Shown here: positions 6,690-21,015 of the stretch, piece by piece
Layout of the letters: the number at the start of each line of letters is the position of its first letter
How positions within the stretch are numbered: the stretch's first letter is position 1
Assembly (NCBI GenBank): GCA_951406725.2
Contig: OX597818.1
Location: forward strand, 78,430,001 to 78,494,000
Direction of reading: 5' to 3'
Length of the DNA: 64,000 bases
From: Octopus vulgaris
Lineage: Eukaryota
Made by a program: the position numbers and the translations under genes
Notes under the pieces: generated by a model
Seen by the model: only the letters and a program-made list of their open reading frames with translations
Databases searched by the model: none
What the model was told of the DNA's origin: nothing

Positions 6690-6910
6690 CTCTTTACTCC
6701 TTTACTGTTTTACTTGTTTCAGTCATTTGACCGTGGCCATACTGGAGCACCGCCTTTAGTCGAGCAAATAGACCTCAGTACTTATACTTTGTAAGCCTAG
6801 TACTTATTCTATCGGTCTCTTTTGCCGAACCGCTATGTTACGGGGACGTAAACACACCAGCATCGGTTGTCAAGCGATGTTGGGAGGACAAACACAGACA
6901 CACAAACACA
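6690..6910 (-). mobile_element. Family-D SINE 3' half
   Basis: tacttgtttcagtcatttgac..ggagcaccgcc..tttgccgaaccgcta, as in the other family-D copies. Confidence 0.85.
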
Positions 6911-6919
6911 TACTTTATC

Positions 6920-9900
6920 CTCAAAAATTGGAATTTTGGATTTGACCGAATAAGATGATGTGGATGATCGGAGCAGCGGTGGAGATAAATGTGGGATGAG
7001 TGGATTTGCAAAATAATTCTGTCACTATTCTGCCTCTAGAAAACTTGACTTTTGTGTCCATAAATTCAATGCTAGTTTTTGAAATACTAGACGTAAATTT
7101 TATGTTGGACTTAAAGCCATAGTTTCTAGCATAACAGTCACAGAAATGCAAGAAGTCCATTAAACTATCCTGTGATCATTCCCAGACAAAAAATACGTCA
7201 TCAATGAACCGTAACCAGAGTATTGGTTCATGACCATGAAGGGGTTTGAATGTCTTCAGTAGCTGCATCTTGAATTTCGTCATGAAGATATTAGCGAAAT
7301 TAACTGCCATGGGGTGTCCACGGCGCAACCCTTTGTCTGGTGGTAAAATCTTTGTCTAAACTTCATTGTGTTACTTTCTAACACAAACCTCAATAATCTA
7401 CAGAGAAAATTTGATGGAATACTTTTGTTTGACCGCTTTTCGAAGGCATCCATACATACTTCTACCCCTTCATTGTGGTTAATATTGGGATATAATGAAG
7501 AAATATCAATGGTTTCCAAAAATACAGTTCTTAATACGGCCTCGGGGCTTAAAAAAGTTGCTTTTAGATACAAATTAAAGGTATCTCGAATTTAGGAACT
7601 TGATTGTTTTGCGACGGGGAGTAGAAAGCCATGCAGCCATTCCGAAATTTTTGCCGTGCAACATCCATATCTGCTGCAAATTGGGCGCATTGGAGGAAAT
7701 CTTTCGAACTTTTTGTGCATTTTAGGGAGACCATAAAATACAGGTGTCCTTTCTGACCGTAAAATCCTAGTTTCGGCCTTATTAACGAAATTGTTTTCTC
7801 CCATTTCCAGAATTATTTTGTCAAGTTCCTCTCTGTAATTGAGGTTTGAATCAACAGGTAATTCTTCATATGAAGTTTTGTCATTTAAAACTTCTTCACA
7901 AGCCGAAATATACTCACATTTGTCCATAATTACGATAGCGCCTCCCTTATCCGCCATTTTAATAACATTAGAATCTTTATTAGCTAGACGTCGGAGTGCG
8001 TAACGTTGGGAGTTTGTGAGGTTATTCCAGGACTTCTTTCTACTTGATTAAGGCTTTCTATAATGCCTGTCTGACAAGATTCAAGAAATTCCAGTAGTGC
8101 TTGTGAACGTCTATCCCGAACTTTATCTGGATACCAATTGGGATTGTTTTCAATCCAGTTACGCCAGATTCTATCATCGTTTTTATTTTCAGTAAGCATG
8201 GGGTTTTCTGACTCCTCGTTATCAGTTTTTTTCAAAAAAATATTCTTTCAGCTTGTGAAGTCGGACAAACTGAAATAGCCCTTGAGCTAGTTTAGTCTTG
8301 TCGAAATTCTTAGTGCTTGGACAAAAACTCAGTCCAAGCTCCATGACTGAGACATCGTCGGGCACAAGTTTTAGTTTAGATAAATTTATGACCGACTTAT
8401 TCTCTAGTGTGATGGTTTTTCTCGGGCAAGTGGTTTTCAGAGTGTTACTCTCATTAGATTTCTGACTACGTTTTGGGCTTTGCTCAAAATCTTCACTTAA
8501 AACACGAAACCTACTGGGTGATAAAATTTGTTCTGAATTTTCATGTGAGAAGCTATAATTTTTAGTCGTCTTTCTAGGGGTAATCCATTTCTGGGTGGGC
8601 GATAGAAAGTGAGTGACTTCTGTGGTTTTTGTAGACATTTGGAAAACCTTTACTTTCGGGAAAGGAACAAATTTATTGTTTTTGAGGCAAAATCTTAAAT
8701 GTGCTCGCATTTTTGACTGATCAAATAAAAACTTCTCTGGAGCGTTTCCAATGACTAGTTCAAATGCATACGCCAGGGCAAAAGGCCACAATTATATGTG
8801 CCAACTTGGGGATTAATTATATGAACTTGTTGAATTGTAGGAACAATGTTTGTTTGTGGTGAATACAATGTTGTTATTTGTGCCATTAGTTCCTGCGAAA
8901 CTGGTAAGTTCAAACTGTCATAAATATAAACATCTCCGAAAAAATTAGTTGACAAAACAAAATGATTGTTCCTAGTGTGATGAATGAACAGTTTGCGGTG
9001 TGGATGAGAAATTCTGTGTGAGAAAAGAATGGTTGGTTGTATTGGAATTTCTAGAAAATTTTCCGCTGCGATTTTCAACCCGGCGTCAATGAGTTTATCA
9101 CATAACATTTGTCCTGAAAGTAAAAACGACTTCTCATATTTCAAAGCAAATTTTCTCAACCGAAATGTTCCCTTGTCCACTGGCTCAGGGAAATGGGAAA
9201 TCAGCTTCTTTTCTTTCTTTTTTTTTTTATCTTCGAGGCCGAAATTTCCTTTTTTTTCAAAGTTCGTCAAACAGTTGTACAAAAAGTTCAAACGATTTTT
9301 AGAACATACCTTTTTAAGGACGCTCGAAATCTCCTTAATGTCTGCACCAAGCAGTATTAATTTTGAACGATAGTGATAAATAATAGCTTCCATTATATTT
9401 CTTTATTGCCCACAAGGGGCTAAACATAGAAGGGACAAACAAGGACAGACAAAGGGATTAAGTCGATTACATCTACTCCAGTGTGTAACTGGTACTTATT
9501 TAATCGACCTCGAAAGGATGAAAGGCAAAGTCGACCTCGGCGGAATTTGAACTCAGAACGTAGCGGCAGACGAAATGCCAATTTCTTTACTACCCACAAG
9601 GGGCTAAACACAGAGAGGACAAACAAGGACAGACAAAGGGATTAAGTCGATTACATCTACTCCAGTGTGTAACTGGTACTTATTTAATCGACCTCGAAAG
9701 GATGAAAGGCAAAGTCGACCTCGGCGGAATTTGAACTCAGAACGTAGCGGCAGACGAAATATCGCTAAGTATTTCGCCCGGCGTGCTAACGATTCAGCTT
9801 CCATTATGTTAAATGAATTGCTCTCACCAATTAATTTAAACTTTTGAAGCAATGAATTGTCAAGCTTTGATGCACAGATTGGTATATTTGATGTAAGACC

Positions 9901-10233
9901 ATCCGGTATAACTTTTTCTTGTTTGCATGTTTCCAGAAATGATAGATGGCTCTTGACTTTAGCACGAAAACGATTAAGTTTTTTCACAGATAGAAATGTC
10001 GATTTCTCAATTTCTGATTCATATTTGAATGGTACAAATTCCATTGGCCCAGGATTGGGTTCAACGCTGGGGTCTAGCGAAACTAACAGGGCTAACAAGC
10101 CAACTGTAAGAGGGAAAAAAATGCAAAAGCTATAATTTACATTACGATTTTCCTTAGACACCCGGCTGCTTTGGTAACTTCCAGAATTTCTATATGATCC
10201 AATTCTTATTCTGTGTACCATAAAATCAATCAT
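6920..10233 (-). mobile_element. Penelope-like retroelement (frameshifted, 3'-truncated) encoding 2A-like peptide, Ulp1/C48-like protease and PLE RT
   Basis: RT motifs in order: VINLS..ELGLSFCP, ADKGGAIVIMD, PVFYGLPKMHK, PMRPICS, IDISSLYPNI, FYHQTKGCA, WLRFIDDVFF, IEFMD. Upstream: HLSFLETC..VIPDGL, DPSVEPNPGP (10045-10074), and protease motifs NHFV/YDSL/PQVG/NCG (8657-9117). No GIY-YIG because the copy is truncated at 6920. Confidence 0.88.
9397..9795 (-). mobile_element. Family-A SINE with internal tandem duplication (about 184 bp), inserted in the PLE ORF
   Basis: 12-bp TSD AGCTTCCATTAT at 9385-9396 and 9796-9807. Removing the insert restores the frame ..SFNIMEA|IIYHYRSK.. Confidence 0.92.
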
Positions 10234-10289
10234 CTCAATCTACTTTTAAATTATATATTTTCAAATTAATTTTCGTTAAATTACTCTGA

Positions 10290-11459
10290 CTTTATATATC
10301 ATTTTAAAGCCCGTTTTTCGCTCTATCTAATAGGTCATTTTTTCCGGAACGTTGAATACAACATGGACAAAAAGCAAATTCGCATAATTTTCTTATTCCA
10401 GTTCAAGCTAGGTCGAAAAGCTGCTAAAACAGCTCGCGATATCAACGATGTGTTTGGCCCAGGAACCACTAATGAACGTACAGCACAATGGTGGCTCAAG
10501 AAATTTCGTAGCTGTGACGAGAGTCTTGAAGACGATAAGCGTAGTGGTCGGCCATCGGATGTTAACAACTATCAACTAAGAGCCTTAGTTGAAGCCAATC
10601 CACGCCCAACTGTTCGAGAGCTTGCTTCTGAATTAGACGTAACGTATACGACAATTTCCAACCACTTGAAAGAGACTGGAAAAACAAAAATACTTGAGAA
10701 ATAGGTGCCGGACGAATTGAACGACAACCCAAAAAAAAAACGCCATTTTGAAGTGTCGTCTTCCCTTATTTTACGCAACAAGAACGACCCGTTTCTCGAC
10801 CGGATTGTGACGTGCGATGAAAAGTAGATTCTTTACGACAACCGGCGACGTTCAGCTCAGTGGTTGGACGCCGACGAAGCTCCACGGCACTTCCCGAAGC
10901 CAAAGTTGCATCAGATGAATGTCATGGTGATTGTTTGGTGATCTGTGGCAGGTCTCATCCATAACAGCTTTTTGGATCCAGGCGAAACCATTACGGCGGA
11001 GGAGTACTGTCAGCAAATGAATGAAATGCATAAGAAACTCCAACAACAGCCAGCATTGGTCACTAGAAAAGGACCAATTCTTCTCCACGATAACGCTCGG
11101 TCGCACGTCGCACAACTGACCCTGTAGAAGTTGAACGAATTGGGCTACGAAACTCTACCTCATTCGCCATACTCACCAGACCTCTCATCTACCGACTTCC
11201 ACTTCTTCAAGCATCTCGACGGCTTCTTGCGTGAGAAATGCTTCAAAAACCAAGTCGATGCCAAACACGGGTTCAACGACTTCATCGCCAACAGAATGCA
11301 GGATTTTTACGCTACAGGCACAAATAAACTTGTTTCGCATTGGCAAAAATATGTCAGTTCTGACAGTGTTAATTTCGACTAATAAAATTTTGTTTGAGCC
11401 GAGATATGTGCATCTGAATTGAAAGGTTAAAAACCACCAGAACTTTCTTGACAACTTAA
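10290..11459 (+). mobile_element. Mariner transposon fossil (DD34D, Hsmar1/cecropia-like); transposase pseudogene 10363-11382
   Basis: MDKKQIRIIFLFQFKLGRKAA..NERTAQWW..RSGRPS; IVTCDEK*ILYDN; LLHDNARSH; YSPDLSSTDFHFFK, with several stops. Right end aactttcttgacaacttaa+TA; left TIR not seen. Confidence 0.93.
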
Positions 11460-18427: not shown

Positions 18428-21015
18428 GAAATATGTTACAAAAAGAAATATAAAATACACGTGGAAATGTAAGGGTAAAATATGAAAAATCAACGAAAAT
18501 GCACATTGTAAATAAAAAAAAAGGCTTTTTATGACAGGTAACGACAAATATATACATTTAGATGGACTGAGGTAGTAATAAAAGTCATAAAAGTCATTAT
18601 TATGAGATGATTATAAGATGATGATAAAGTCAGAAAACAAAGCGAAAACACCGGCTAATACACGGTGTCAGGTCTAATAGTTCTTGAGAAAAAAGATTAT
18701 TTGTAAGGGAGGTAAGTAGTTCTGGATTATTTGTAAGGCGGGTATGTAGTTCTGGATTTAGAGATCTGAGTGGTGTAGGAAGTGTATAGGGGTTAGTGGT
18801 GTTCTTTATTGAGTTGTGTGTTCATATTTAATTGGGGGAGATATTTATTGATGAAAAATGCCTCTTTATTCAACCTTTGTTGAATTGTGGTGTTCTGTGA
18901 ACATTGATAGAAGGGGAAGATTTGGAAATTGGGGTTAAGATTTCTGGCACACCTTTCTATGTGTTCACTCACCTTTAACTGTCTGTATTGTGGGTGGCGC
19001 ATTTGCTCTTTGTGAATGGTGGTTCTTTGACGGAGTGAAATTCCTGTTTGTCCAATATAGAGTTTACCACATCTTATGCATGTCATGACATAGATTACAT
19101 TTACTGAGGCGCAGGTGAAATTTGATTTGATCTTAAATATTTCTCCTTGTTTGAAGTGAAATTCTGAACCCTCCAGAAGGTGGGGGCATGTTCCACAGTT
19201 AGTACATCCACATTATTTCACTTTTGGCTCTGTTGTTAGTGGATACAGTCTTGCGCTGGTTAATATTTTTTCGCTGACTTCGATTGCTTTTTGCTTTTTA
19301 TAATTTTGTATGAGCTTAAAATTTCGTTCATTGTTTTGTCTGCTGTGAGGATGGGAAGATTTTGGGTGATGATGTTAAAGGCTTCATTGTTTCTAGGGTT
19401 ATGTGTGGAAATGTACGGGAGTATTTTTAAGTCTTGTTTAGTATTTCGGCTAGCTTTCCTTAACATTTGTATATCTATTTCCTTAGCTCTTTTGATGCCT
19501 TCATTTATTAATGAGATTGGGTAATGTCTTTTAGTTAGTGTAGATCTAAGTTCAAGGAGTCTTTGTTCTCGAGTATATGTATCATAAACTATGGTGCAGA
19601 TTCTTTTCGCTAGGTTAAAGGGTATGTTGATTTTTATGTGTTTGGGGTGGCAGGAGTTAAATAATAGGTATTGTTTTTAGAATCTGTGGGTTTATAAAAG
19701 ATGTCTGTTTCTATGTGGTTGTTAACTATTCTAATTAAGATGTCTAGAAAAGGGAGTTGTTTACTGTTGTGTTCCATAGTGAATTGTATATTGCTGTGTA
19801 TGTTGTTGAGCATTCTTTTGAAATCAAGGAGTTTATCCATGCTGTCTTTCCAAAGTATGAAGCAATCATTCAAATATCTCTTCCAGTTCTCCTTTAAGTA
19901 GCAATTAAAAGAGGCGCCATATTTTTCTAGTGATGATTTGTATAACTTGAGTTCGAGGTAACCCATTACAAGGTTTGCAATCACTGGAGCAGCTCTGGTT
20001 CCCACTGAAATTCCATATTTTTGTCGATAGTAAGTTGTATCGAACATGAAATGATTGTTCAGCAGGATGAATTTCAGTGCTTCAATTATAAAACTGTGGT
20101 TAATACGTCCTGGGATCTCTTCTGGGTATTTTTCTAGCCAGAATGTGATTGCTTCTATACCATAGTCGTGTGGGATATTGGTGTATAGATTCACCACATC
20201 GAAAGATACCAGCTGGGTTCCGTCCTTTACTGTCTTCGGGAGATGGTTCAGCATGTCTAGGTCATCCCTGATAAAGCTTTTCACATATTTTAAAAGAGGT
20301 TTGAGTAATATGTCGAGGAAGTTGCTCAAACGGTGGGTTTCACAAGAAGGGCCAGCTATGATGGGTCTCAGCTTGAGGTCAGTAGGGGGAGGGACATTAA
20401 TGCTTGGGTTGTAGAGACTTTGCAGGCTTCACAAATGTGTGGATTTTTATGTATTTTGGGTAATCCGTAGACTAGGACTGTGTTTAAAATTGGATAAATA
20501 GTCTATTTCATGTGTAGTGAGACCCTTTCCATGAATTTGGAGTAAGGAGGATAAGTTTTTCAGTGTTTTCTGTGGGTTGTAATATGTTAATTTTTCATAG
20601 TAAGTATTATTTTCCAACATGGAAAGTATTAGATTTTTGTAGTACTCTGTATCCATCACAACTACCGCACTTCCTTTGTCGGCTTCTTTAATGATGAGGT
20701 TTATGTCATTTTTTTTAGCTCGACAAGGTCTTTCCATTCATTTAAATTAAGGTTGGATTTAATATGTTGTTTTGGAAGGGTATTGTAAGGAAAACAAGTT
20801 ATGTGATCACAAAAAACATCAAGTGCTTTATTTCTGCCTTTTGCAGGACGGTATTCCCTTTTGTTTTTCACTATTGAATCATCTTCGCTGGTGTAGTTGT
20901 GAAGTGCTTCTGTGAGGCGTAATTTTCGGCAGAAGTCCATAGTATTGTCCTTTATTTCATTTGGGTTCGAACTGCGGGGGGTAGGGGTAAATTTTAAACC
21001 TCTTGCTAGGATTTT
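18424..21015 (-). mobile_element. Penelope-like element (Neptune-like): near-complete RT plus GIY-YIG, frameshifted and 5'-truncated
   Basis: GLKFTPTP; IIKEADKGSAVVVMD; LRPIIAGP; SFDVVNLYTNIP; YRQKYGISVGT; WKRYLNDCF; LPFLD; CGCTNCGTC; VIYVMTCIRCGKLYIGQTG. Bounded by (TA)n and (TG)n. Confidence 0.93.

Follow-up and report, generated by a model that had tools for sequence, protein, structure and literature searches.

A 2A-like "StopGo" motif follows a hydrophobic leader at the start of the ORF of a Penelope-like element (PLE) in the genome of Octopus vulgaris. The locus raises the question of whether this motif is a translational signal of the element, and to what use it would be put, or the remnant of a canonical 2A peptide. 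The window, that is the whole 64,000-nucleotide stretch of DNA analysed here, contains a copy of the element on its minus strand.

The leader and its motif in the window

The minus-strand frame that opens with the ATG at 10233 translates as MIDFMVHRIRIGSYRNSGSYQSSRVSKENRNVNYSFCIFFPLTVGLLALLVSLDPSVEPNPGPMEF. The 62-residue leader of this PLE ORF terminates in LLVSLDPSVEPNPG|P and the predicted skip site (G|P) lies between positions 10048 and 10047. An earlier reading made from the sequence alone (the sequence-only reading) had placed the motif at 10045-10074 behind a leader of about 62 aa, and both values are exact in this translation. The features of the copy are listed below (coordinates, strand, description, and evidence in brackets).

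6907..10265, minus strand: whole decayed PLE copy (comparison with other genomic copies)
10192..10233, minus strand: start Met and motif M-x-D-x-x-x-[YH]-R-x-R-I-G-x-[FY], residues 1-14 (kept in 29 of 33 rows)
10075..10131, minus strand: hydrophobic helix of residues 35-53, its end 9 residues ahead of G|P (hydropathy, family pattern, model of P0189)
10045..10074, minus strand: DP-type 2A-like motif DPSVEPNPG|P, residues D54-P63 (translation, pattern count, alignments)
9797..10047, minus strand: start of the PLE N-terminal helical domain, SHLSFLETC...IPDGL (alignments, model of P0189)
9397..9796, no strand assigned: tandem SINE-like insertion breaking the ORF (11-bp target site duplication GCTTCCATTAT at 9386-9396 and 9797-9807)
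8700..9140, minus strand: Ulp1/SENP-like cysteine protease domain, bounds approximate (35% to P0043, E 2e-30)
6907..8187, minus strand: PLE reverse transcriptase (RT) with DKG motif, carrying stops and frameshifts and cut before the endonuclease (tblastn with P0043 and P0018, RT tree)

The DNA pattern for [VI]ExNPGP is matched once in the window against 0.01 matches expected (100 shuffles). The core found, SVEPNPGP, falls outside the 2A/StopGo core definition (D/G/C/N)(V/I)ExNPGP. The sequence-only reading had noted Ser in place of the consensus Asp, with an Asp two residues earlier. Both residues are present, but what it took for a departure from consensus is a signature of the clade (see below) and not decay.

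State of the window copy and of its family

The window copy is dead and truncated. Its 5′ boundary lies near 10265, so it lacks the 5′ UTR that other copies have. The SINE insertion is not found in other copies of the family; after it, frameshifts and stops interrupt the ORF, and the copy breaks off within the RT/thumb region near 6910, without the endonuclease. Any function belongs to the ancestor of this copy and to its relatives. Just upstream of the PLE lies a decayed mariner-type transposase (Mos1 HTH, PF17906; window 10363-11390, plus strand). A second, distant decayed PLE with RT and endonuclease (EN) matches occupies window 18877-21015 (minus strand), near which no NPGP motif was found in the window translation.

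A search of the 2.8-Gb genome with the 5′ region gave 508 candidates, 40 scored, 43 matches and 30 fetched loci; two near-duplicates (L006, L012) were dropped and 28 genomic copies analysed. These copies are 81-93% identical over the 5′ region. DPSVEPNPGP is exact in 10 of the 28 and the form DP[SR][VI]EPNPGP is found in 13, a conservation across family copies on which the sequence-only reading had made its proposal depend. The family residue is kept at each motif position by 22-26 of 27-28 copies. Taken alone, a motif shared among genomic copies tells only of inheritance from a master. The sequence variants themselves show that coding selection acted in the past of the family: those common to at least four copies have a dN/dS of 0.37 (19 N, 14 S) versus 1.12 for private ones (232 N, 56 S), with a Fisher p of 0.006 over codons 1-146. 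The test limited to codons 1-63 is not significant (p 0.10).

Scoring of 150 genomic matches to the protease region revealed no intact copy. Inspection identified a C-terminal GIY-YIG region in copies L002, L005 and L008, and the pseudo-LTR (pLTR) arrangements typical of PLEs occur in L008 (tandem) and in L002, L005 and L015 (inverted). In four copies (L007, L017, L018, L025) the match stops at window 9974-9975 (AAAAAACTTAA) and a pLTR start follows directly, which would make them short units with the whole leader and the 2A-like motif but without the enzyme. The 5′ UTR of other copies also carries, about 100 nt upstream of the ATG, a hammerhead-like motif with an odd core (CTCGACAAA...GAAATATC; L002 1380-1425, L016, L021, L010 and others), which the window copy does not have; the Rfam hammerhead gave no match in 6 loci.

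Conservation of the motif in related PLE proteins

A query with the protease region retrieved two proteins with RT and GIY-YIG. P0001 as query gave 913 matches, of which 120 were listed, and a profile search added its best 150. Among 303 proteins, 44 members of 90% clusters and 19 protease-bearing proteins without an N-domain match (mostly N-truncated) were left out, as was P0036, which starts inside the N-domain. The resulting set holds 31 relatives with N-domain, Ulp1/SENP-like protease and upstream sequence.

(N/H)PGP stands directly before the N-domain in 25 of the 31 relatives. The motif seen by the sequence-only reading is real, and its conservation reaches well past the window family. 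The form D-P-[S/G/A/R]-[I/V]-E-x-[N/H]-P-G-P (hereafter the DP form) is present in 21 of the 31, including P0173, a near-duplicate of P0018; the other proteins among the 25 have ILICIELNPGP (two), GNIERNPGP (one) or GSIHPNPGP (one). DxRSxKNxQR-like motifs replace NPGP in the remaining six, which keep the leader with its hydrophobic stretch, so that skipping appears dispensable in the clade. The carriers of DxRSxKNxQR are P0001, P0003, P0016, P0203, P0210 and P0218; its D and N are six apart, in the 2A register.

The 21 DP rows, of which 20 are relatives and one is the window, all have D, P, E, P and G unchanged. At p12, the "Asp" position, Ser occurs most often (S 11, G 6, A 2, R 2), and p16 is N in 20 rows and H in one. 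Free variation is seen at the x position and in the residue behind Pro, as is usual in 2A peptides. The 15 full-length DP-type members have 37-57% protein identity. Several substitutions within the clade match known functional 2A variants: N16H (P0042), E14H (P0035), G at p12 (6 of 21 rows), C at p12 (P0043, P0170) and G11-N12 (P0041). The pattern [VI][EH]x[NH]PGP has 42 matches in the 233,028 residues of the fetched proteins, all within the first 170 residues, and in most members the motif lies 54-74 aa from the start. Canonical GDVExNPGP was found in 2 of 40 protease-less PLEs with N-domain, many of which have no sequence upstream of that domain. When the 146-aa N-terminus of the window was compared to longer proteins, 0 of 377 candidates passed. 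A query of the ESM Atlas with the P0032 leader gave no usable match, a result that speaks neither for novelty nor for absence.

The trees are quick IQ-TREE runs (LG+G4) supported by SH-aLRT only, with no bootstrap and no named reference PLEs. The RT tree (42 rows) has a protease-bearing group (98), a DP-containing group that includes the window (99) and an NPGP-less group (100); two G-type members branch outside the DP and NPGP-less groups and the chosen outgroup is not a clean clade. The tree of N-domain plus protease (31 rows) unites the six NPGP-less proteins in one clade (98 SH-aLRT). The two CIELNPGP proteins, P0043 and P0170, lie within the DP clade (99) on different branches, one of them as sister of the window element. 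At this site the DP form would thus alternate with a core type of known activity. The ILICIELNPGP 11-mer identical in both proteins suggests convergence or leader exchange. As judged from alignments and trees, the DP form is a distinct, non-canonical 2A-like signal of a protease-bearing PLE clade and not a decayed canonical 2A.

Hydrophobicity and topology of the leader

The window leader reaches a KD19 of 2.32, with flanks of +2/-3. This value supports a stretch hydrophobic enough for a membrane segment, in agreement with the signal/TM-like stretch seen by the sequence-only reading. KD19 is at least 1.6 in 17 of 19 DP leaders (P0022 and P0166, with short called starts, were left out) while the best downstream hydropathy window stays below 1.6 in 11 of 12 proteins. 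The hydrophobic pattern of the family is F-23 L-22 G-18 L-17. An AlphaFold model of P0189 (mean pLDDT 82, pTM 0.51) folds residues 35-56 as a helix and the motif as a loop, followed by the helical N-domain and the protease. Hydropathy, the alignment and this model place in the leader the 2A feature of a hydrophobic helix at about -19 to -10 followed by a loop. The ribosome exit tunnel accommodates ~30-40 residues. The hydrophobic segment ends ~10 residues before G|P and would still be in the tunnel at the pause.

Charges that flank a hydrophobic segment predict its membrane topology (the positive-inside rule), and our topology prediction is a charge rule of thumb based on hydropathy and flank charge. 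All 19 DP leaders have a neutral or negative C-flank and all 6 NPGP-less ones a positive C-flank; since flank and motif coincide, this contrast is circular in part. The median difference between C- and N-flank charge is -4 in DP members. Read-through in these members is predicted to put RT/EN on the luminal side, a sink rather than a second working form, which goes against a useful role for the membrane-targeted read-through form of the sequence-only reading. In the NPGP-less clade, with its basic C-flank, the enzyme could stay cytosolic and tethered.

Element class and protease

The element is Penelope-like, as the sequence-only reading had it: it has a PLE-type RT with DKG, and its family has a GIY-YIG region and partial-tandem or inverted copies. 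RVT_1 and the C-terminal GIY-YIG (PF01541) are found in the relatives, the latter being lost from the window copy. With regard to the CX2-5CxxC linker of the Neptune clade, a CxxCxxC is present in P0001 and is not conserved across the 20-member alignment. Between protease and RT, at about 8590-8540 in the window and likewise in relatives, short W..P.K and NRF.pL motifs are conserved in a linker that otherwise varies.

The residues of the window protease are His 8964, Asp 8919, Gln 8808 and Cys 8790, and a frameshift follows closely on the Cys motif; the four residues (H, D, Q, C) do not vary among 28 rows. PF02902 is recognized in P0001 (22.5 bits, cutoff 20.7) and gave no match in 6 other members. 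Pfam returned nothing useful for five window fragments, and a PDB sequence search with query A2 gave one weak match, to a Ulp1-like protease (E 0.015). A Foldseek search with the P0189 model has SENP5 (E 5.6e-05), SENP3, Ulp1 and SENP1 as best matches, at E ~6e-05 to 2e-04, and the adenovirus protease only at rank 49. The clan CE fold and the His-Asp-Gln-Cys set are those of Ulp1/SENP (C48) proteases, and by its modelled fold the enzyme looks like a SUMO-type isopeptidase. No conserved Gly-Gly cut site was seen in the linkers of the 20 full-length members aligned. The enzyme would more probably counter SUMO/ubiquitin-type control than process a polyprotein, and neither the best fold matches nor the linkers speak for the virus-like polyprotein put forward by the sequence-only reading. 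P0067, a PLE outside the protease clade, has an N-terminus that by eye resembles an OTU-type protease (GDGNC...HY).

Known 2A activities and the DP form

The 2A core has been widened to (D/G/C/N)(V/I)ExNPGP (Li 2026, PMC12846837). According to the accessible part of that study, C/N/H variants in their native context have 95% or more activity and rare T/V12, H14 and H16 variants ~90% or more; S12 is not among the enriched variants reported there. In F2A/P2A no D12 substitution lies above the activity threshold and most G11 changes abolish activity, as stated in the accessible text of bioRxiv 2026.09.24.754024, where high activity is given for 139 of the 1,969 Class X peptides, which are non-canonical, and for 43 of the 580 2As from retroelements. 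The DP form is two changes away from (G/H)D(I/V)ExNPGP and is for this reason outside the Class X search of that work. Asp-Pro at p10-p11 does not figure in the upstream classes (motifs 1-6, A, B, X) described in the available portions of these sources.

Four S12 strings were compared with the results of a screen (bioRxiv 2026.06.17.732966 / PMC13405545), in whose accessible files three peptides were found. By machine classification, the one with a core identical to that of the window (LLLLSGSVEPNPGP) is non-skipping with reduced protein, another shows fall-off only and the third skips with reduced protein. A CIELNPGP peptide is classed in the same source as skipping with reduced protein. PSVE, PSIE, PGIE and PGVE have 0 matches in the results file available for this screen. 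Six DP strings gave no motif match in the accessible supplements of Li 2026, Rao 2025 (PMC12338488) and the PMC13405545 screen, where positive controls were matched. Four DPAVE matches occur in the Li 2026 supplement, and the two displayed lie downstream of another motif. StopGo activity is favoured because related branches use cores shown to skip (CIELNPGP, GNIERNPGP), and some form of it is probable in the clade.

Proposed mode of action

Our main reading, to which we give a probability of roughly 0.6, is that StopGo release of the leader gates the output of free enzyme, fall-off and read-through being unproductive. Translating ribosomes would halt at NPG|P and let the leader of 62 residues go. 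The hydrophobic helix (-28 to -10), then presumably still inside the exit tunnel, would aid the stall, the invariant Asp-Pro at -9/-8 taking the role of the usual Gly-Asp. Restarting ribosomes would synthesize a Pro-started, leader-free N-domain-Ulp1-RT-GIY-YIG protein able to enter the nucleus; those that drop off or read through would give no working enzyme, the exposed signal-anchor being predicted to direct it to the ER lumen. The leader would act as a gate that throttles RT/endonuclease output. Down-regulation by 2A was proposed for APE-type elements in the accessible text of Luke et al. (2013, PMC3894237).

The motif might instead only stall ribosomes and lower output without productive restart, in which case full-length enzyme would come solely from read-through and retain its leader. 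Reduced protein was indeed the outcome for most tested retrotransposon 2A-like peptides (70% of ORF1p and 59% of ORF2p cases), the same core is non-skipping and reduced in the one context mentioned above, and 5 Leu of the window peptide fall within -19..-10, the range associated with reduction. However, none of the 21 rows departs from the terminal G-P, the Leu count in this range is just 0-3 for most DP relatives, and a retained leader with an acidic C-flank is predicted to misdirect RT to the lumen, which makes productive skipping preferable and a pure stall unlikely. Dual targeting, where partial skipping would give both the free enzyme and a functional membrane-anchored form (e.g., at the ER or nuclear envelope) and NPGP-less relatives would have fixed the anchored form, is rather improbable. 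The confinement of strong hydropathy to the leader would agree with it, as would the NPGP-less clade, which keeps the stretch with a basic C-flank in 6 of 6 proteins that favours a cytosolic RT. Two members (P0039, P0169) have a second hydrophobic segment, and a precedent exists in sea-urchin NLR 2A signals (PMC4981915, accessible text). Yet the charge bias of DP leaders predicts a luminal C-terminus, where RT/EN cannot act, and a hydrophobic helix is in any case usual in eukaryotic 2As.

It is highly improbable that the motif is a proteolytic site, cut in a virus-like polyprotein by the protease of the element or by a host signal/intramembrane peptidase. The same ORF does encode a cysteine protease with an intact His-Asp-Gln-Cys set, and D and N stay in register in DxRSxKNxQR, the replacement motif, but 2A-like motifs are also found in protease-less PLEs (P0095, P0237), the variation of the motif tracks StopGo rules, and the ranking of SUMO proteases above the adenovirus enzyme and the linkers without conserved Gly-Gly point the same way. 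That the motif is a chance or decayed relic, with the true start at Met64 after NPGP, is barely credible. Met64 has a good Kozak-like context (GGGCCAATGG), that of Met1 being weaker, and it is kept in 25 of 27 copies. A Met after NPGP occurs nevertheless in only 1 of 21 DP rows, the window's own, and the motif is invariant across the identity range of the full-length members. The N-terminal motif is conserved in 29 of 33 rows and the alignment of P0043 to the window begins at residue 1 (E 3.8e-20 over 1-168), so Met64 is not the start used by the clade. These comparisons largely refute the relic for the clade, and with it the start immediately after NPGP that the sequence-only reading had named as fatal to its proposal. 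Leaky scanning to Met64 in the family of the window is possible.

Relation to known systems

Gating by the leader would bring the element close to APE-type elements, in which ExNPGP also lies ~40-80 aa into a single RT ORF (40-80 aa from the start for APE-type 2As in the accessible text of PMC3708506), after a hydrophobic tract, and is proposed to limit enzyme output. The present element differs from them in being a GIY-YIG PLE with an Ulp1-like protease and in its predicted signal, D-P-[SGAR]-[IV]-E-x-NPGP instead of GD[VI]ExNPGP. The DP form shares with the StopGo classes of recent surveys (PMC12846837, PMC12338488, bioRxiv 2026.09.24.754024) the conservation of E14, N/H16 and PGP and a class-specific upstream signature; p12 tolerates change in native context in those peptides. 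Asp10-Pro11 sets it apart from the classes described in their accessible text. The dual-function 2A signals of sea-urchin NLR proteins (Roulston 2016, PMC4981915, as far as accessible) likewise combine a hydrophobic segment and a 2A in one N-terminal leader. Skipping would decide between cytosol and ER in both cases, the targeting being here only predicted, but the sea-urchin 2A is a 26-aa N-terminal signal whereas our leader has 62 aa and its hydrophobic part at 35-53.

The N-domain, RT with DKG, C-terminal GIY-YIG and tandem or inverted copies are those of Neptune-like C-terminal-EN PLEs (Craig 2021, PMC8557442). The leader with its 2A-like motif and the Ulp1-like protease distinguish the present element from those in the accessible text of that study, where the sole mention of a protease is a Josephin-like motif in Chlamys-1_cBra. 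An Ulp1-like cysteine protease N-terminal to RT is known from the retrotransposon ORF of NeSL and Utopia-1_TSP (PMC4640811); these are nematode elements with a restriction-like endonuclease, for which no 2A is noted in the accessible part of the source. No report of a 2A or Ulp1 in PLEs, or of the DP form, was found in the literature outside subscription journals and Repbase, and the word "Penelope" has 0 occurrences in the main text of the 2A papers searched. The "telomerase-like" elements with Class A 2As in the available text of bioRxiv 2026.09.24.754024 may be PLEs.

If true, our main reading would extend 2A to a retroelement class for which no published case was found. The comparisons also point to a PLE clade with an Ulp1-like protease. 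It would provide a new StopGo solution, with Asp-Pro for Gly-Asp and Ser where substitutions kill F2A/P2A, that bears on the current structural model for ribosome jamming by nascent chains. Standard motif searches miss the DP form. DP, C-type, G-type and NPGP-less leaders on one tree would make a natural experiment on the role of 2A in retrotransposons (release, throttling or targeting). A wider scheme, drawn from sequence comparison, can be advanced only tentatively. An active "DP" StopGo class would switch a membrane anchor in a new PLE clade, skipping freeing the SUMO-protease-RT-endonuclease; the basic DxRSxKNxQR of the sub-clade would either flip the anchor, giving a membrane-tethered enzyme, or be a novel arrest/release peptide; and the leader (M..YRxRIGxF - TM - 2A) would be a cassette for translational control, mobile and common to LINEs and host immune genes as well.

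N-terminal motifs similar to that of the window ORF head 2A-bearing proteins of sponge, sea urchin, clam and tick (7 rows in the accessible supplement 4 of PMC13405545). These are host and ORF1 proteins, and from the start motif they have in common the leader looks like a shared cassette.
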